The notes under the pieces are model-generated. The model was not told the DNA's origin and searched no databases. It saw nothing but the letters and a program-made list of their open reading frames with translations. From Escherichia coli (lineage in GTDB: Bacteria; Pseudomonadota; Gammaproteobacteria; Enterobacterales; Enterobacteriaceae), in the NCBI RefSeq assembly GCF_003334385.1, contig NZ_QOWN01000070.1: 9,240 bases of DNA; one strand, 5' to 3'. This document shows positions 281 to 9,240 of this stretch, piece after piece. Both the position numbers and the translations under genes were made by a program. Numbering within the stretch: position 1 is the first letter of the stretch; the number at the start of each line of letters is the position of its first letter.

Positions 281-471
281 TGGAAGGATAGCGGTCATGT
301 GATGCCGGTTTCCCGGTAACTCAGCACCGGTATCTGAGTCAACGTTTTCTCTACTGGGTCATTTCCGATACGCCCTGCCTGCTGACAGGCTTTCATCACA
401 TCTGAAAATATAGCACCCTGACTGATACTGTAGTACCCAAGGTTCCAGAAACTGTGATGTATCCGGCACAG

Positions 472-494
472 AAAAGCCCCTCCGGAGAGGGGCT
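472..494 (-). terminator. Intrinsic terminator, minus-strand orientation
   Basis: Perfect 8-bp inverted repeat agcccctc / gaggggct with loop cgga (475-494), preceded on plus by gaaaa; the minus-strand RNA is a hairpin followed by UUUUCUGUG. Confidence 0.55.
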
Positions 495-518
495 GGAGAG
501 TGGCGCTATGTGCCATTG

Positions 519-699
519 CATGGTGCCGGGTGCCTCCCGGTGAGTTCAGTATCAGCACCTGAACCCGCACAGAAAGGATAAGGGTCGGTGACAAAACACC
601 AGTTGCTGATTGCCCCTCCGCACAGGGGGATTCACCATGCCAGTTTCTTTTAACAAACTCCCCGCAAACCAGACAACAGTCAACCGCCTGAATTGTGAG
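519..699. repeat. Copy B of the ~180-bp structured repeat
   Basis: Same three conserved blocks as copy A (519-549, 612-640, 688-699) with diverged spacers. A second hairpin in both copies (gttcag...ctgaac in B, gttcag...ctaaac in A) varies between copies. Confidence 0.6.
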
Positions 700-744: not shown

Positions 745-821
745 TGGCGCGTTCTACTGTATTCGAACCAGTGACCGATTGCTTAGAAGGCAATTGCTCT
801 GTCCGGCTGAGCTAACAACGC
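745..821 (-). tRNA. tRNA-Arg (anticodon UCU), phage-type (argO-like position)
   Basis: Minus-strand read: GCGTTGT-TA-GCTC-AGCCGGACA-GAGC-A-ATTGC-CTTCTAA-GCAAT-CGGTC-ACTGG-TTCGAAT-ACAGT-AGAACGC-G-CCA. D and anticodon stems are perfect, the T-loop is TTCGAAT, and the 3' CCA is encoded. One mismatch each in the acceptor stem and T-stem. Confidence 0.7.
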
Positions 822-834
822 AGGATACAGATAA

Positions 835-911
835 TGAACCGCCTTCGGGGACCCGAACTCCGCGCAACCAGCTTCGAAGGCTGGCGCTCTTTCCTGATGA
901 GCTAATGGCGG
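835..911 (-). tRNA. tRNA-like gene, possibly tRNA-Arg (anticodon UCG) or a degenerate tRNA pseudogene (argN-like position)
   Basis: Minus-strand read: CCGCCAT-TA-GCTC-ATCAGGAAA-GAGC-G-CCAGC-CTTCGAA-GCTGG-TTGCG-CGGAG-TTCGGGT-CCCCG-AAGGCGG-T-TCA. D and anticodon arms are perfect, but the T-loop is non-canonical (TTCGGGT), acceptor and T stems each carry one mismatch, and the 3' end reads TCA rather than CCA. Confidence 0.4.
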
Positions 912-918
912 TATGTGA

Positions 919-994
919 TGGTGGCCCTTGCTGGATTTGAACCAGCGACCTGGCGATTATGAGTCGCTCACTCTCACCACTGAGCTAAAGGGCC
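919..994 (-). tRNA. tRNA with anticodon CAU (tRNA-Ile2 or tRNA-Met type; ileZ-like position)
   Basis: Minus-strand read: GGCCCTT-TA-GCTC-AGTGGTGA-GAGT-G-AGCGA-CTCATAA-TCGCC-AGGTC-GCTGG-TTCAAAT-CCAGC-AAGGGCC-A-CCA. Acceptor and T stems are perfect, the T-loop is canonical, CCA is encoded; 76 nt. Confidence 0.75.
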
Positions 995-1004
995 GAGCCA
1001 AAAA

Positions 1005-1033
1005 ATAATAATCAGATGAAAATCAATAATCAA
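1005..1033 (-). promoter_or_regulatory. Sigma70-like promoter for the tRNA cluster
   Basis: On the minus strand, TTGATT (plus 1028-1033), a 17-nt spacer, then TATTAT (plus 1005-1010), ending about 10 nt upstream of the tRNA 5' end at 994. Overlaps the 3' end of the AraC-like ORF. Confidence 0.35.
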
Positions 1034-1736
1034 GCCCTTGCCTGGATACATATCTGTCTGGCGGGAAGCCATAATAGCGGTGAAATACAGAAATAAAGTA
1101 GGACCTGCTTGAATAACCGCATTTTTCTGCTATAGCCTGTCCATATCCATGCCGGGAACATAACATATTTACAGCAACACGCATCCGCTCTTCCAGCAAC
1201 AAGCGACTGAACATGCCCCCTTCATTTTTCAGTTTTGTCTTTAACAAACTCTCACTCATATGCAACTGTAGAGCAATCGCACCAAGCGTCCAGCTTGCTG
1301 ATATATCTGTCTGAATTATCGCCCTGACTTTGGCACTTATGCTGGATAAACATCCACTTAAAAACAATGACATCCGTTCATCTGTTTCAAACAGAGACAG
1401 GCAGGCCATCATAAGAAACATATCCGTGGCCTCTCCGGAAAATCCCTGGCTGGTAATTAAAGCCGCAGCCAACGCAGGATTGTTGGGTTCCAGCAACAGG
1501 TAAAGCGGAATGTCAGTCAGACGAGTCCTCGTCAGCTTATGCTGACTTTCCAGATATTGACTTACGACGGATTCGCTTATATCGACAATTTTAACTTTGC
1601 CATAATGCATAAGGAAAAGCTCCCTGATGCATTTGGTGGCCAGAACAACTGAGCCTGGCTTAAGTGACAACGTATCCTTTTCAAGAAAAATATTAATTGG
1701 GGAGCAAACCATGATAACTGAACAGACAACAGCCAT
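1023..1736 (-). CDS. AraC/XylS-family transcriptional regulator, YdeO/AppY/GadX-like
   Basis: ORF track, 237 aa, ATG start. The N-terminus MAVVCSVIMVC resembles the M-x-x-VCSV start I recall for YdeO/AppY. The C-terminal region (SESLLKTKLKNEGGMFSRLLLEERMRVA ... IAEKCGYSSRSYFISVFHRYYGFPP) has the pattern of the AraC-family HTH. From memory, not searched. Confidence 0.8.
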   Translation of the reverse strand: MAVVCSVIMVCSPINIFLEKDTLSLKPGSVVLATKCIRELFLMHYGKVKIVDISESVVSQYLESQHKLTRTRLTDIPLYLLLEPNNPALAAALITSQGFSGEATDMFLMMACLSLFETDERMSLFLSGCLSSISAKVRAIIQTDISASWTLGAIALQLHMSESLLKTKLKNEGGMFSRLLLEERMRVAVNMLCSRHGYGQAIAEKCGYSSRSYFISVFHRYYGFPPDRYVSRQGLDY

Positions 1737-3512: not shown

Positions 3513-4727
3513 ATGACAATTGCTGATGACTTATCAAGATTAGCGCAGATTATTAACGGAGCCTCAAGCAGAGTTGAGGGCTACTACACTGTCATAAGTC
3601 TTGAAGAAAGCATTGTTATTGTAAATAGTTCTGAAATAATTAGACTGTTACAATCTATAGGTTATAAAAAGGCAACAACCTGCATCGAAAATAATGAAAT
3701 TTGGCTAGATCGCCAAGCTTCATCTTGGGATGACGCTATAATTTATGAGAATGTTGAGTCTTTTTGGTCTAGAGTAAACACCCAAAACGCTCTTCCGAAA
3801 AATTATATCATCGGAACGCCGTTAATACTCCCTACTTCTAAGAATGAAAGCATCGAAAAAATCCATATTTTCTTTATGTGGAAAGATATCCTTTCATTAA
3901 TTGCTGATCATCATAACAGTGACTGCTCTGTCTTATTTTTCACCAATGAAGACAAAAGTTATACAGTCGAACTCACGCATTTTTTACAATATAGCGAGAT
4001 TAATCGCTTATCGAACTCGTCTCTTAAATATGAAATTATAAAGGAGCTTCTCGACACAATAAAAATCAATGATTTACACAAAAGCGAGCGCAAGCTCGTT
4101 ATACGCTCAGCCATAAACGAAGTATTTAAAGCAAATGGTACGTTCAATTTCTTTGACTTGCTTAACTCTACTGAACTCGTCAGGAAAAAATATGATGAAC
4201 TATATGAGATTTACACAAAGAGGTTTTCTGTAAATAAAATTCTTAACGAACTCGATGAGAAAAATCTTGAGTTCACGAGTAAAATTAACGAATTCATATC
4301 ATCTAATCAGACAAAAGCATTGACTATTCCCGGTGCATTAATAGCTGCTGGTGGCTTAGTGAAGGCTAATGAAACAACCGAAGCAATATTGATTATCGCA
4401 GGACTTTGGATGATAAAAAAAGTCAATTACATTTCTATTGAGATATTCAATGAAACATTCGACAACTTACGTTCTCGAGTGGAGTCCGCTTTCGATAAGT
4501 ATTTAAAGTTTGAAGAAAATAAAGAAATCAAAGATAATGCAGATAGTATTAAGAGTAGCATTACAGGTTTGATTGATAAAGCTAAAAAAAGGATGAGAAC
4601 TGTTAAATATCTCGCATCAGCCATGTTTTATGGAGGCCTTATTTACGTTGGATATAAACAGTTCCCAGTCTTTTTTGAAAAATCGGCAGTAAATCTATTT
4701 TATTTTTTATGCCATACTATAAGCTAA
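3513..4727 (+). CDS. Cassette gene 2: predicted membrane-associated protein of unknown function (candidate effector)
   Basis: ORF track, 404 aa. The ATG lies 2 nt after the gene 1 stop, indicating an operon. AT-rich. Hydrophobic segments ALTIPGALIAAGGLV and AILIIAGLWMI (about nt 4318-4420) and the C-terminal YLASAMFYGGLIYVGY (about nt 4608-4680). No catalytic motif recognised. Confidence 0.8.
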   Translation: MTIADDLSRLAQIINGASSRVEGYYTVISLEESIVIVNSSEIIRLLQSIGYKKATTCIENNEIWLDRQASSWDDAIIYENVESFWSRVNTQNALPKNYIIGTPLILPTSKNESIEKIHIFFMWKDILSLIADHHNSDCSVLFFTNEDKSYTVELTHFLQYSEINRLSNSSLKYEIIKELLDTIKINDLHKSERKLVIRSAINEVFKANGTFNFFDLLNSTELVRKKYDELYEIYTKRFSVNKILNELDEKNLEFTSKINEFISSNQTKALTIPGALIAAGGLVKANETTEAILIIAGLWMIKKVNYISIEIFNETFDNLRSRVESAFDKYLKFEENKEIKDNADSIKSSITGLIDKAKKRMRTVKYLASAMFYGGLIYVGYKQFPVFFEKSAVNLFYFLCHTIS

Positions 4728-5063
4728 CATTGCTAAACAGCCGTCAACAAACCCCATTGCAGTTTGCAGTTCCTTCCTAATTGTGCCATCAGAGCATTTT
4801 CTCTTCTTCGCAATAGTACGTAATGAGATACCGATAACAAAGTGGGCGATGATGAGCTCATATTCCTCTGGTTTATACCTTCTCAACCGAGCCACACAAC
4901 TGTCTATCATGATGCCTTCGTCATCATCACACTGAATCCGTGACTTTTTGCCATGAGGTAAAAGTCCCTTGAAACCAGCCGCTATCGGCTGCCAGTCCAC
5001 TCCGCTATTGTCTGAAGCAGCCCAAGCTCCCCAACGATCCATTACTTCATACATATCACGCAT
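4707..5063 (-). CDS. Phage antitermination protein Q (QuuD-like small Q family)
   Basis: The ORF track calls 4707..5078 from a TTG. I prefer the in-frame ATG at 5061-5063, which has GGAGA 6 nt upstream and gives MRDMYEVMDRWGAWAA..., matching the M-R-D...ERWGAWAA start I recall for DLP12 QuuD-type Q proteins. The 3' end overlaps cassette gene 2 convergently by 21 bp. Confidence 0.75.
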   Translation of the reverse strand: MRDMYEVMDRWGAWAASDNSGVDWQPIAAGFKGLLPHGKKSRIQCDDDEGIMIDSCVARLRRYKPEEYELIIAHFVIGISLRTIAKKRKCSDGTIRKELQTAMGFVDGCLAMLAYSMA

Positions 5064-5080
5064 CAACTTTCTCCACAAAA

Positions 5081-6100
5081 TCAGGCCAGCACACCAATTG
5101 CCAGCGCACGATCGATAAAACGAAATATCAACTCCAGCTGGGAGCCATACTTCTCTTCAAATGCCACGGTATCCGCATGCAGCTCGTCGTGATGCTTTCT
5201 GCACAAAGGCAACACAAAGAGATCATGCGCTTTTGTACCCATTCCCCCCTGACCGTGGCCTATCAGATGGTGGGGATCATCAGCAGGCTTTCCACAACAT
5301 GCACACGGCTGCGTCTTAACCCAGCGCGTGTACTTTTCATTAACCCAGCGGCGACGTTTGGGGCGTAACATAAAAGACTCCGGCGACTCCGGATCCACTT
5401 TCAGCGCCAGCACCTTTTTCGCTTTATCCTGGATGATGCTGGTGGCAGGAACCGAAGGCACAAGGTCACTTTCCCGGGTGACAGACGGCACAACAGGCTT
5501 CGGTAATCTCAGTGCCTTACGGGCTGCACTTTCCGGTAAGGCATCCGCCAGGTCATTACGAATCAGCCACCAGCACAGTTCCGGCATTGTCACAACGTGA
5601 CTGTCATCAAAACCAAGATCACGGCGCACAACAGATAACACCCAGCGGGCACAGTTATCCGTTGCCATTGCTTCCAGCCGTTCCGTGAACTGGTCACGGA
5701 GAAGATTGTCACAGTGCCAGCACAGACGGATTGCACCCGGCGCGTGTCGCATTGTGGTCATGTTCTCGCTGTGCCATCCGGAATGAGGCCACTGACAGCC
5801 CTTTTCACGAAGTAACCAGCTTTCAAGACATTCCACCCCACCAGTACAACGAATAACTGCCTCATTGCGGAACACGGCCCGAACGGCAGGATCATCCGCC
5901 AGCGGTTGTGATGCTGCCGGAACGGCACCGCTGGCGAAAGATGAATAACGTTCCGGCTCAGGCTCCAGCAGGACACGCCCCTGCATAAACAGGGGCATCA
6001 GCTCTGAACCGGGCCTGAACAATACAATCCCCATACGCGGGGCAATTTCAGGGGTCAGCAGTGCTCTCACGGTCACCTCAGCAAACGATATTGAATGCAT
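5081..6100 (-). CDS. DUF968-like phage protein with a C-terminal Cys/His (HNH-like) motif
   Basis: ORF track, 339 aa, ATG start. The C-terminal motif CACCGKPADDPHHLIGHGQGG...LPLCRKHHDELH resembles the YdfU/DUF968 family found just upstream of Q in E. coli prophages. From memory. Confidence 0.7.
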   Translation of the reverse strand: MHSISFAEVTVRALLTPEIAPRMGIVLFRPGSELMPLFMQGRVLLEPEPERYSSFASGAVPAASQPLADDPAVRAVFRNEAVIRCTGGVECLESWLLREKGCQWPHSGWHSENMTTMRHAPGAIRLCWHCDNLLRDQFTERLEAMATDNCARWVLSVVRRDLGFDDSHVVTMPELCWWLIRNDLADALPESAARKALRLPKPVVPSVTRESDLVPSVPATSIIQDKAKKVLALKVDPESPESFMLRPKRRRWVNEKYTRWVKTQPCACCGKPADDPHHLIGHGQGGMGTKAHDLFVLPLCRKHHDELHADTVAFEEKYGSQLELIFRFIDRALAIGVLA

Positions 6101-6121
6101 ACAGAGAAAAAAACTCAGTCA

Positions 6122-6379
6122 TCACGCAGTAAACTCCTTCACCAGTATTTCAAACTGGCTTACCTGTCCTTCCAGTTCCGCCACGCAATCCACCAGCTCA
6201 TCCACCGCCTTTTGTGTGCGGTGTTTTGCCTGCAGCAGATCACGAAGCGCCGGAGTAAGCTGCTTGCGGAGCGTATCTTTTTTCACGCTCGTTTTTTCCA
6301 TCTGTTCAGCACAACGAAGCATCTCCTGCGCCTGCCGACGAAGTTGTTCCGGTGAAACAGTGATTGTTCTGTTGTTCAA
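6122..6379 (-). CDS. Hypothetical small phage protein (85 aa, predicted helical)
   Basis: ORF track; TTG start overlapping the helicase stop (TTGA), with GGAG about 8 nt upstream; no in-frame ATG until residue 20. Charged, helix-like composition. No family recognised. Confidence 0.45.
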   Translation of the reverse strand: MNNRTITVSPEQLRRQAQEMLRCAEQMEKTSVKKDTLRKQLTPALRDLLQAKHRTQKAVDELVDCVAELEGQVSQFEILVKEFTA

Positions 6380-7776
6380 AATAAACGCTCCGTTTTACTG
6401 CCCGACATGCGGTTATTGCTGTATCTGCGCGGATTGCCCGGCGTCATGGGTGTGGAAAGAACCCGGGCACTCTCCTGGTCCACAGGCAGAAAATGTCCGT
6501 TATGAAAACGCCGGTAAATGGTCCCGAGCGTGCCATTACGCTGTTTCGTGATGTTGATTTCTGCTATGCCTCTGGCCTGAGTTTCCGGGTTGTATACCTC
6601 ATCCCTGTAAAGCATCAGAATGATGTCGGCATCCGCCTCGATTTCCCCGGAGTTTTTCAGGTCCGAGTTCATTGGGCGTTTATTGGGTCTGGATTCCACG
6701 CCGCGGGAGAGCTGGCTCAGAGCAATCAGCGGAAAACCGCCGGATTTTGCCAGGCTTTTAAGTCCCTTTGAGATTTCCCCCACCGCAAGGTCGTGACGCC
6801 CCGTGCTGCGGGTTTTAATCAGGCCGAGGTAATCGACCACCACCAGCGCCGTTTCCGGGTGTTTCATCCGGTGGTGCTTCGTGGTTGCACATATCTCATC
6901 AATGGTCAGGTTTGCCTGGTCCACCATCCAGATATTACGCCCCGTCATTCGTCCCACGCCCTGCGAGAAACGCGCCCAGTCTTCATCTTCAAAACGGGCA
7001 ACAGACTTAAGACGGGATACCGGCATTCCACCGGCAGCAGACACCATACGTTCACCAATCTGGATGTTCGCCATCTCCATGGTGAACAGAAGCACGCCAT
7101 GCCCCTGCTCAGTCACCTTGTCGATGATGTCCAGCGCAAGTTCGGTTTTCCCCATCGAAGGACGGGCGGCAATGAATACCAGGTCTCCGGGCTCCATACC
7201 GCCCGTTTTTGCGTCCAGTTCATCAATACCGGTCATCAGCGCCCTGGATTTCTCCAGTCCCTGATTGCGGCATTCAACACGGTCGACCACTTCCGGAAGG
7301 ACATCATCAATGTGAACCGGCTGAATGACGCCCTTTCCGGTCGACAGTGAGGCCATCATGTTCTGCACATCCTTCAGGGCATCCTCGGCTGCTTCACAGG
7401 TATACGCATCACGTAAATTCTGTAATGCTTCAGTCAGTGTTTTTTCTGCATCGCGCAGTGCGGCATTGCGCCGCAACGCTGCGACATAGTGCTCCAGTGA
7501 AGACTTCACCCAGGTTTTGCGTCCGGTGTCGGTAATCACCGGGGCAAGTTCCGGCATCTCATTGCACAGCAGTACGGGGTCAATGACGCCGGATATGCGA
7601 GCCTGTCTGCAAATCCCCGCGTAAATATCCCGGTACTGACGCACAAAAAATACATCCGCCGGAAGTGTGGCCAGAATATCCATCACTTCCGGATCGGCCC
7701 CACGCAGAAAAAACGCACCGATGACAGCGCCTTCCAGGTCATCGTTACGCCATGCCGGGGTGTTCTGGCTGGTCAT
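6376..7776 (-). CDS. DnaB-family replicative DNA helicase (phage-encoded)
   Basis: ORF track, 466 aa, ATG start with GGAGGTG 7 nt upstream. Walker A ARPSMGKT, and the block ALSQLSRGVESRPNKRPMNSDLKNSGEIEADADIILMLYRDEVY closely parallels E. coli DnaB ([44 protein letters not shown]). Confidence 0.9.
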   Translation of the reverse strand: MTSQNTPAWRNDDLEGAVIGAFFLRGADPEVMDILATLPADVFFVRQYRDIYAGICRQARISGVIDPVLLCNEMPELAPVITDTGRKTWVKSSLEHYVAALRRNAALRDAEKTLTEALQNLRDAYTCEAAEDALKDVQNMMASLSTGKGVIQPVHIDDVLPEVVDRVECRNQGLEKSRALMTGIDELDAKTGGMEPGDLVFIAARPSMGKTELALDIIDKVTEQGHGVLLFTMEMANIQIGERMVSAAGGMPVSRLKSVARFEDEDWARFSQGVGRMTGRNIWMVDQANLTIDEICATTKHHRMKHPETALVVVDYLGLIKTRSTGRHDLAVGEISKGLKSLAKSGGFPLIALSQLSRGVESRPNKRPMNSDLKNSGEIEADADIILMLYRDEVYNPETQARGIAEINITKQRNGTLGTIYRRFHNGHFLPVDQESARVLSTPMTPGNPRRYSNNRMSGSKTERLF

Positions 7777-8672
7777 GCGGCAACACCTCCGATACGAGAA
7801 CGGTAGCTGGGCCAGTTAAACGACAACCAGTTGCGCCCGTCATCGGTGATCCTGTCGGCAATCCGGGGACTGATGAACGCCCACAATTCTTCCGGTGAAA
7901 GATTGCTGATCAAGATAGTTGGCAAAATACCCTCATACCGGGCATTGATAATTTCCTGCAAAATGGCCATTTCAGCCGCACTGCCAAACTGAACGCCGAC
8001 TTCGTCGACAATCAGCAAATCCAGTGACGCATAATGCTCAATGACGTCATCCGCTGTTTTTTCACTGTCATTCCGCCAGCAGTTTTTCACAGCCCGGGTA
8101 AGGCGCATCACGTCGGTGATCTCCACACTGGCCAGATAGTTACGGATGATGTGTTTTGCCATTGATACCGCCAGATGATTTTTCCCGGTACCGCAACTGC
8201 CGGTCATAACAAGACTGGTACCGTTCTCCAGCATATCTGGCCAGTTCTCCGCATAGCGGCGACAGGCCGCAAGATTTCTGGCTGCGTCAGGATTAACCTC
8301 CAGATAATTATCAAACTCGCAGTCCCGAAAACGCAGAGCAATTCCGGCGTTATCAGTCAGTTCTTCCGCCTTGAGGGACGACAGTTCCATGGTCAAATCA
8401 CTGGCCTCAGCGATCAAGCAGTCAGGGCAGCATGAAATTTTTTCTCTGTCCTCGCCATTACGATCGATCCACACCAGTATATGCGTACGATATTTACCGT
8501 GTTTTTCGCAATATCCGCGACCTTCACGCATCAGGCAGGAACGATAAGGCCATGGCTTTTCGCCCTTCTGAGCAAATGCAATCTCTGCCCGTAACTCATC
8601 CATTTCTGCCCGTAAATCATCCATTCGCGCCTGTAGTCTTGTTTGTTTCTCACGTTGGTCAATCGTCATCAT
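7773..8672 (-). CDS. DnaC-like helicase loader (AAA+ ATPase)
   Basis: The ORF track calls 7773..8681 from a GTG. I prefer the ATG at 8670-8672, with GAGGTGA about 5 nt upstream. Walker A GSCGTGKNHLA, Walker B LLIVDEVG, and C-terminal FNWPSYRSR (E. coli DnaC has FNWDSYRSR). The stop overlaps the helicase start (ATGA). Confidence 0.85.
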   Translation of the reverse strand: MMTIDQREKQTRLQARMDDLRAEMDELRAEIAFAQKGEKPWPYRSCLMREGRGYCEKHGKYRTHILVWIDRNGEDREKISCCPDCLIAEASDLTMELSSLKAEELTDNAGIALRFRDCEFDNYLEVNPDAARNLAACRRYAENWPDMLENGTSLVMTGSCGTGKNHLAVSMAKHIIRNYLASVEITDVMRLTRAVKNCWRNDSEKTADDVIEHYASLDLLIVDEVGVQFGSAAEMAILQEIINARYEGILPTILISNLSPEELWAFISPRIADRITDDGRNWLSFNWPSYRSRIGGVAA

Positions 8673-8682
8673 CGCTGTCACC

Positions 8683-9240
8683 TCAGAATGTCAATTTGTT
8701 ACTGGATTTACCAAATTTGTCAGACATGGCTCCCAGGCCAGCCAGGACATCGACCTGTCGCTGTCGCCCACCTCCGTGAGCGGCTGGCTGTTGCCAGTAA
8801 TCTTCGAAGTGACGATCGGGTCCAAAGAACGTCGCAGCCTGCTTCACGAACTGTGTGCCGGTATTTCCTGTAGCACGTACCCAGGCGGCATACCGCTTCA
8901 CGCCATCAAGCATGGTCTCCGGTTTTATTCCCTCCCTGATACGGGCTTTCCAGGCTTTGAAGGCTGCTGACTTGGAATTGCCACCAGCACGTTTGGGATA
9001 TTCCTGCCAGGCCTGTTCAAATTCCGGTGAATATTCCTGTCTGGCAGAACGCGCTGGTGCAGACGCGTCAGCGGATGCGCCAATAGTGTTTTTAGTCTCC
9101 GTTGTAATCTCTGTAGTAATCTCTGTATTTGTATCAACATTCGGCGTATCCCCTGTTCCGTTACGACGTCGGGGGGTGTTCCGTTTTAACGTAATAGCTG
9201 TATCGCTGATTGCATTATTGCTGTTACTTTCTGGCGAAAC
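8683..9240 (-). CDS. Phage replication initiator (O-like replisome organiser), C-terminal part; 5' end lies beyond the window
   Basis: I translated the minus strand by hand from 9240 down to the stop at 8683-8685 and found no in-frame stop. The track's 76-aa ORF (8683..8913) is the tail of this frame. The C-terminal sequence EFEQAWQEYPKRAGGNSKSAAFKAWKARIREGIKPETMLDGVKRYAAWVRATG...FFGPDRHFEDYWQQP resembles the conserved C-terminal domain of lambdoid replication proteins. It sits immediately upstream of the DnaC-like gene. Confidence 0.7.
   Translation of the reverse strand, partial: VSPESNSNNAISDTAITLKRNTPRRRNGTGDTPNVDTNTEITTEITTETKNTIGASADASAPARSARQEYSPEFEQAWQEYPKRAGGNSKSAAFKAWKARIREGIKPETMLDGVKRYAAWVRATGNTGTQFVKQAATFFGPDRHFEDYWQQPAAHGGGRQRQVDVLAGLGAMSDKFGKSSNKLTF
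9104..9127. repeat. Perfect tandem 12-mer (GTAATCTCTGTA x2) inside the O-like gene; candidate iterons
   Basis: 9104-9115 is identical to 9116-9127, with partial copies on both flanks. A 9-mer TGTTCCGTT also recurs at 9155-9163 and 9177-9185. The tandem encodes the TEITTEITTE linker on the minus strand. Confidence 0.55.

Follow-up and report, generated by a model that had tools for sequence, protein, structure and literature searches.

Overlapping genes and predicted start codons in the replication module of a phiP27-type prophage of Escherichia coli

The replication genes of several well-described phages are joined by short overlaps. RefSeq annotation places 4-nucleotide overlaps at six such junctions (O/P and P/ren in lambda, 18/12 and 12/ninA in P22, and 38/39 and 39/40 in SPP1), so that junctions of this kind are the rule in phage replication modules. 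We analyzed a module of this kind in a 9,240-nucleotide stretch of Escherichia coli DNA (RefSeq assembly GCF_003334385.1, contig NZ_QOWN01000070.1; hereafter, the window), in which genes for a replication initiator, a DnaC-family helicase loader, and a DnaB-family replicative helicase, followed by an open reading frame (ORF) of 85 codons, occupy positions 9240 to 6122 of the minus strand. An earlier model-generated reading of the sequence (the original prediction) had described these genes as a compact module of a type ordinary for phage operons, a description that the junctions of lambda, P22, and SPP1 bear out.

Nucleotide comparison showed that the 3.2-kb block containing these genes is 99.7% identical to a prophage of E. 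coli strain 3059, that its identity to phiP27 and to many Stx1- and Stx2-converting phages is 85-95%, and that at least 80% of the block is present in 315 of 5426 complete E. coli genomes. The block belongs to a lambdoid E. coli prophage of the phiP27/Shiga-toxin-phage type, in whose early rightward operon it forms the replication part. When the minus strand was read, the gene order (initiator, loader, helicase, 85-amino-acid ORF) and all of the coordinates in the original prediction, including those of the ATGA and TTGA overlaps, were confirmed. The prediction had stated that successive genes abut or overlap by 1-4 nucleotides, which is correct for the loader/helicase and helicase/85-amino-acid ORF junctions. 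The initiator and loader genes are instead 10 nucleotides apart if the loader begins at the ATG codon that we favor below, its ribosome-binding site overlapping the initiator stop codon, and with that start 10 of 2564 bases are non-coding. A crude consensus search of positions 4600-9240 found nothing resembling a promoter and no terminator-like site between genes, the weak terminator hits all lying within coding sequence, and so we treat the genes as a single transcription unit. We consider it quite probable that the gene identities, the three start codons, and re-initiation at the overlaps, taken as a whole, are the best explanation of the locus. The module and the corrected loader start are already present in public annotation. 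The Eru papers classified the replication regions of Stx phages and did not discuss DnaC, the loader, or its start codon, and, judging by titles and abstracts, we found no paper on the initiator-loader-helicase module.

We compared the loader/helicase junction in 16 loci: 4 of the E. coli type (the window, phiP27, and two other phage loci) and 12 from other genera, identified by scanning one genome per species for the initiator-loader-helicase trio. The trio was found in Citrobacter, Pseudocitrobacter, Enterobacter, Raoultella, Serratia, Superficieibacter, Kosakonia, Phytobacter, and Yersinia, and in an unclassified Enterobacteriaceae genome. All 16 loci contain the exact ATGA overlap, and in nearly all of them its ATG is the first in-frame start codon. 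The 60 flanking bases of the 12 other-genus loci have an ungapped identity to the window of 27-40%, the C terminus of the loader and the N terminus of the helicase both differ in length among these loci, and a GGAG, GAGG, GGGG, or AGGA motif is found approximately 7-10 bases 5' of the helicase ATG. A single overlapping stop and start is not improbable by chance; the retention of the exact ATGA, and of the TTGA at the next junction, exceeds chance. Because the ATGA was retained in every locus despite near-random divergence of its flanks, the comparison provides good evidence that its register is under selection.

The loader gene has three candidate start codons on the minus strand: GTG 8681-8679, which lies one base past the initiator stop codon, ATG 8672-8670, which lies a further 9 nucleotides on, and ATG 8669-8667. 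The duplex between the GAGGUGA sequence upstream of the ATG codons and the 3' end of 16S ribosomal RNA has a predicted energy of -11.3 kcal/mol and would serve ATG 8672; on the gene strand, about 2% of all 22-mers pair at least as strongly as -10.8 kcal/mol. A comparison of start positions among homologues, which the original prediction had named as a check, gave a uniform result: 24 homologues with 53-95% identity, from genera that include Klebsiella, Enterobacter, Salmonella, Citrobacter, Serratia, and Pantoea, all begin at a methionine aligned with the first ATG. In ten of the other-genus loci, the loader ATG follows the initiator stop codon at a distance of 12-16 nucleotides and is preceded by a ribosome-binding site; in the two Yersinia loci, it overlaps the stop codon. 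RefSeq also starts the loader at ATG 8672 in the 99.7%-identical prophage, and the exact 299-amino-acid product is found in NCBI and UniRef. These comparisons identify ATG 8672 as the start of the loader gene, GTG 8681 being part of the ribosome-binding site and not a start codon.

The 85-amino-acid ORF belongs to the families PHROG_2565 and PHROG_2539, both of unknown function; it has no Pfam family and is largely restricted to Escherichia. Of 86 E. coli-type loci, 85 contain the TTGA overlap with its upstream GGAG, and the remaining one has a truncated helicase gene; both sequences were also kept in a divergent allele (L169) in which codons 2-8 differ, and the GGAG is constant among the variants of the junction. 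Homologues show almost no variation in residues P10 to E19, which are encoded 5' of the first ATG. Variation is distributed over codon positions 1, 2, and 3 in the ratio 8:3:14 in codons 2-19 and 26:16:47 in codons 20-85. An orthologue in Enterobacter has ATG at the homologous codon 1, where it forms an ATGA overlap with the upstream gene. We conclude that TTG 6379 is, on this comparative evidence, the genuine start of the ORF. Because the same evidence supports the TTG, the shorter products annotated in phiP27 (80 amino acids) and phage ASU11 (66 amino acids) are probably wrong. The original prediction was right that two of the starts in the program-made ORF listing, which opens each ORF at the earliest start codon that follows an in-frame stop, are not ATG (GTG for the loader and TTG for this ORF). 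It had also counted an experimental N terminus at the TTG as evidence against its account; as the TTG appears to be the real start, such an N terminus is no refutation.

Each of these starts has competitors. A 302-amino-acid loader that begins at GTG 8681 and abuts the initiator stop codon would use the earliest start codon available in its frame, a GTG that 85 of the 87 E. coli-type loci contain. The conservation is accounted for by the position of the GTG in the middle of the GAGGUGA ribosome-binding site, and the codon has been lost in phiP27 (GCG) and in the locus L079 (GGG), although the ATGATG is unchanged in both. The GTG has no usable ribosome-binding site of its own (-1.5 kcal/mol, at zero spacing), the ten other-genus loci outside Yersinia place the aligned ATG 12-16 nucleotides past the initiator stop codon, and additional in-frame upstream starts in L091, L093, L095, and L096 lack a well-spaced ribosome-binding site, the one exception being an ATG of L095 that lies far within the initiator gene. 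The 302-amino-acid form is absent from a collection of 15 billion proteins, and we regard this start as highly improbable. The original prediction had favored the ATG 9 nucleotides downstream for its better ribosome-binding site (-11.3 versus -1.5 kcal/mol), and its preference is upheld by RefSeq, by the starts of the homologues, and by the loss of the GTG in phiP27 and L079. A loader of 298 amino acids that begins at ATG 8669, as annotated in ASU11, would also have an acceptable spacing, as GAGGUGA is 7 nucleotides away in the duplex model. The second residue of the homologues is Leu, Phe, Thr, Ala, or Met, the aligned second codon in other genera specifying Leu, Phe, or Thr where the first is ATG; as only the first position is a conserved start, ATG 8672 is favored. 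RefSeq and all of the public copies take the first ATG, and the 298-amino-acid form is likewise absent from the protein collection, which makes this alternative unlikely. For the 85-amino-acid ORF, a start at its first ATG (codon 20) would give the 66-amino-acid product of the ASU11 annotation and no overlap with the helicase gene. An AGGAG directly precedes this ATG, but at zero spacing, and a start there would leave untranslated a segment whose residues P10 to E19 are nearly all invariant and whose variation, like that of the rest of the gene, is biased toward third codon positions. The codon 1 ATG of the Enterobacter orthologue and the TTGA of the L169 allele also argue against a start at codon 20, to which we give very little credence.

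With these starts, the initiator, the loader, the helicase, and the 85-amino-acid ORF would all be read from one mRNA. The loader would be reached over the 10-nucleotide gap, from a ribosome-binding site that overlaps the initiator stop codon. Ribosomes that finish the loader would stop within the start codon of the helicase, at the ATGA, and could re-initiate there with the aid of the strong ribosome-binding site in the last loader codons, which would tie the output of the helicase to that of the loader. Such a link would suit partners that act as a stoichiometric complex, by analogy with the DnaB6-DnaC6 complex of E. coli. The 85-amino-acid ORF, re-initiated at the TTGA, would probably be the most dependent of the genes; it is the best candidate because it starts with TTG behind a weak ribosome-binding site, whose pairing energy is reached by about 16% of the 22-mers on the strand. 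At ATGA 7773-7776 and TTGA 6376-6379, the structure of a coupled pair is present, in that the two genes overlap on one strand and the overlap is conserved, and we infer from overlap and conservation that translation of each gene may depend on translation of the gene before it.

Several points weigh against this account. A strong ribosome-binding site precedes both the helicase start (-13.4 kcal/mol) and the loader start (-11.3 kcal/mol), and when approximately 100 nucleotides around each junction were folded, no RNA structure that would mask a start was found at any of them (z-scores from -0.45 to +1.28). The genes could therefore be initiated independently, and the contribution of the overlaps to expression may be small. 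In addition, the choice between ATG 8672 and ATG 8669 was decided only by spacing and the alignment of homologues, and the promoter and terminator scan was of the crude consensus type only. The overlaps could thus reflect genome compaction, with each gene initiated independently at its own ribosome-binding site, and the fact that four-base overlaps are the commonest type of junction in phage operons generally is also consistent with this. Compaction does not readily explain why the exact ATGA persists in 16 of 16 loci despite insertions and deletions and near-random flanks at both gene ends, and the TTG of the 85-amino-acid ORF, with its -6.9 kcal/mol site, would be a poor place for stand-alone initiation. 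We consider compaction alone possible but doubtful, and prefer re-initiation at the overlaps. Downstream starts hidden by RNA structure were rejected on the basis of the folding results, and so any coupling would operate by termination and re-initiation.

Table 1. Coordinates of the features of the replication module in the window
Feature	Position	Strand	Remarks
Initiator gene, 3' part	8683..9240	-	185 codons; runs off the window; stop TGA 8685-8683
Loader ribosome-binding site GAGGUGA	8678..8684	-	overlaps initiator stop; contains GTG 8681-8679
DnaC-family AAA+ helicase-loader gene	7773..8672	-	299 amino acids; Pfam IstB_IS21, E 4.9e-14
21-nucleotide tandem duplication in loader N-terminal helix	8584..8625	-	Tandem Repeats Finder: period 21, 2.0 copies, 95% matches
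Helicase ribosome-binding site GGAGGUG	7784..7790	-	within last loader codons; -13.4 kcal/mol
ATGA overlap of loader stop and helicase start	7773..7776	-	helicase ATG 7776-7774; loader TGA 7775-7773
DnaB-family replicative helicase gene	6376..7776	-	466 amino acids; PHROG_19, E 4e-115
Ribosome-binding site GGAG of 85-amino-acid ORF (weak)	6388..6391	-	8 nucleotides 5' of TTG; -6.9 kcal/mol
TTGA overlap of helicase stop and 85-amino-acid ORF start	6376..6379	-	TTG 6379-6377; helicase TGA 6378-6376
85-amino-acid ORF (helical protein), TTG start	6122..6379	-	stop TGA 6124-6122; position of ren in lambda

The loader matches PHROG_50 (E = 3e-87), and its residues 93-296 align with residues 44-242 of E. 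coli DnaC (6qel; E = 3.7e-28), including the Walker A (GTGKNHLA), Walker B (DLL.VDE.G), and C-terminal (FNW.SYRSR) motifs. It is thus predicted to be a member of the DnaC/IstB clade of AAA+ helicase loaders. We rejected orthology to DnaC, as the loader scores 124.4 bits against the NCBIfam model NF005931, which has an equivalog cut-off of 357. By homology, and because its gene adjoins the helicase gene, the loader would load a DnaB-type hexamer onto single-stranded DNA; all 12 of the other-genus loci that encode the closest loaders also carry a helicase gene.

Residues 1-92 of the loader stand in the place of the short N-terminal helicase-binding segment of DnaC. A confident AlphaFold2 model of this region (pLDDT 87.6, from 39 sequences) consists of a long helix (residues 4-36), three strands across residues 47-79, and a second helix (residues 83-108). 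C55, H58, C82, and C85 are invariant and form a Cys3His unit. The model had no significant match among solved structures. The region may be an undescribed adaptor of about 90 residues to a helicase of the P22 gp12 type or to the phage initiator, with the ATGA enforcing matched output of the partners, but we consider this rather unlikely, and the presence of the same N-terminal region in related loaders whose genes do not adjoin a helicase gene argues against it. The module is probably not without precedent, because PRK08116, a family model of DnaC-like proteins of Firmicutes, aligns with the loader from residue 49. The 21-nucleotide tandem duplication lengthens the first helix by one heptad, producing a repeat of seven residues (MDDLRAE/MDELRAE). 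Both allele lengths are frequent among viral contigs, with 299 amino acids encoded in 44 loci and 292 in 36.

The helicase is predicted to belong to the DnaB family across its full length and to be of the P22 gp12 type. Its score against TIGR00665 (308.8 bits, E = 6e-92) is below the equivalog cut-off of 385, and the alignment extends from residue 11 to residue 426 of the protein and from position 5 to position 425 of the 435-position model. E. coli DnaB structures match residues 15-429 (E = 9e-64), and the helicase is 40% identical to gp12 (E = 2e-112).

The part of the initiator encoded in the window matches PHROG_270, "replication initiation protein" (E = 1e-53), and RefSeq names it "replication protein." The full-length initiator of 330 amino acids (taken from the locus L001) has no Pfam family, the one hit being to HTH_36 (E = 0.11), and no NCBIfam match was found. 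The original prediction had called the gene O-like. This holds for its position and presumed role and fails for its family: the protein has no Pfam Phage_rep_O domain, and BLASTP against lambda O returned a 26-residue match (E = 0.024). A relationship to SPP1 G38P was also rejected (E = 0.72). Homologues of the initiator lie directly 5' of the loader gene in the 12 other-genus loci. The protein is, in the broad sense, a phage replication initiator by these sequence matches, and it is predicted to bind an origin. Its linker region (9096-9127 and 9154-9192, minus strand) contains a 12-nucleotide repeat in 2.7 copies, which encodes TEIT repeats, and two 16-nucleotide direct repeats, TGTTCCGTTACGACGT and TGTTCCGTTTTAACGT, which are 23 nucleotides apart. 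The 16-nucleotide repeats may be origin iterons, as in lambda O, although the copies are too few to call an origin.

We also asked what the 85-amino-acid ORF could be. Its position is that of lambda ren, and position alone agrees with that identity; BLASTP gave no alignment with Ren at E <= 100. The original prediction had included the ORF in the replication module, a role that is unsupported, because the Enterobacter orthologue follows an unrelated gene for a RecA-dependent-nuclease-like protein, not a helicase gene. A defense role for the loader or the 85-amino-acid ORF was also discarded, the PADLOC hits being marginal only (E = 2.5e-4 and 9e-4).

Downstream of the ORF is a mosaic joint (6071-6124, minus strand). 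The phiP27 and Stx1 phages join the 85-amino-acid ORF to the Q antiterminator gene by TGATG, the ATG of which is the start of Q; the window keeps this TGATG (6124-6120) and has a DUF968/HNH gene interposed, with a 51-nucleotide spacer. The probable start of the DUF968/HNH gene (6068-6100, minus strand) is GTG 6070 and not the first ATG at 6100. GTG 6070 is preceded by UGAGGUGAC, the same ribosome-binding site as that of the loader (-11.3 versus -2.2 kcal/mol for the upstream ATG), RefSeq uses it, and the alignment with PHROG_96 begins at residue 11 of the longer form. In the L169 locus, this ribosome-binding site, UGAGGUGAC, directly follows the stop codon of the 85-amino-acid ORF. Likewise, the Q gene (5063-5078, minus strand) probably begins at ATG 5063, which has a GGAG with a spacing of 7 nucleotides, and not at the first TTG at 5078; Q homologues in phiP27 and Stx1 phages begin MRDM..., as does the product that starts at ATG 5063.

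The rest of the window contains several features outside the replication block. A two-gene DS-1 anti-phage system (2335-3510 and 3513-4727, plus strand) was identified by NCBIfam models NF053868 (451 bits; cut-off 330) and NF053869 (375 bits; cut-off 315), and PADLOC v2 had no match for the pair. These genes lie on the strand opposite to Q, between Q and a tRNA cluster, and their 3' end convergently overlaps the 3' end of Q at 4707-4727. The cluster (745-994, minus strand) consists of three tRNAs, Arg(tct), Arg(tcg), and one with a CAT anticodon, which ARAGORN calls Met and RefSeq calls Ile for the equivalent in a related prophage. Two copies of the small RNA family STnc100 (Rfam RF02076) are present at 1-186 and 464-669 (minus strand); they score 134 and 141 bits, respectively (gathering score 47), and the copy at 1-186 is truncated by the edge of the window. 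An AraC-family regulator (1023-1736, minus strand), a distant relative of YdeO/GadX, occupies a cargo position in the late region of the prophage; it scores 108 bits against NF007407, far below the cut-off, and matches PHROG_1450 (E = 1.5e-98).

The value of these results lies mainly in annotation quality. Calling the longest ORF adds three false residues to the loader in this prophage family and probably also overextends the neighboring DUF968 and Q genes, and some published phage annotations cut off the true TTG start of the 85-amino-acid ORF. The principle of overlap is itself textbook knowledge; the ATGA overlap shared across genera is a convenient natural case in which to study a stop/start overlap that may set the ratio of helicase to loader.

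Of the systems with which we began, lambda has a layout similar to that of the prophage block, in the same early right operon position, with an initiator followed by a factor that delivers DnaB and then a small ORF. The window differs from it in that its initiator is not a Phage_rep_O protein, its loader is a DnaC-family AAA+ protein rather than lambda P, its 85-amino-acid ORF has no similarity to Ren, and the prophage encodes a helicase of its own, which lambda lacks. P22 encodes the related helicase gp12 and has no DnaC-like loader gene between initiator and helicase. SPP1 has the same order of initiator, loader, and helicase, but its loader, G39P, has no sequence similarity to that of the window, and the initiators are likewise unrelated. 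G39P is not known to be an AAA+ protein. E. coli DnaC shares the Walker A, Walker B, and FNW.SYRSR motifs with the window loader and differs in its N-terminal part. The closest relatives are phiP27, with the genes L17-L18-L19-L20, and many Stx1- and Stx2-converting phages and E. coli prophages, whose gene content and order match those of the block and whose nucleotide identity to it is 85-99.7%. The window differs from phiP27 in the seven-residue duplication of its loader allele and in the DUF968/HNH gene between the 85-amino-acid ORF and Q, which are adjacent in phiP27 and the Stx1 phages, and in the old phiP27 annotation L18 and L20 begin at more downstream positions. The phiP27-type phages have ATGA and TTGA junctions identical to those of the window.

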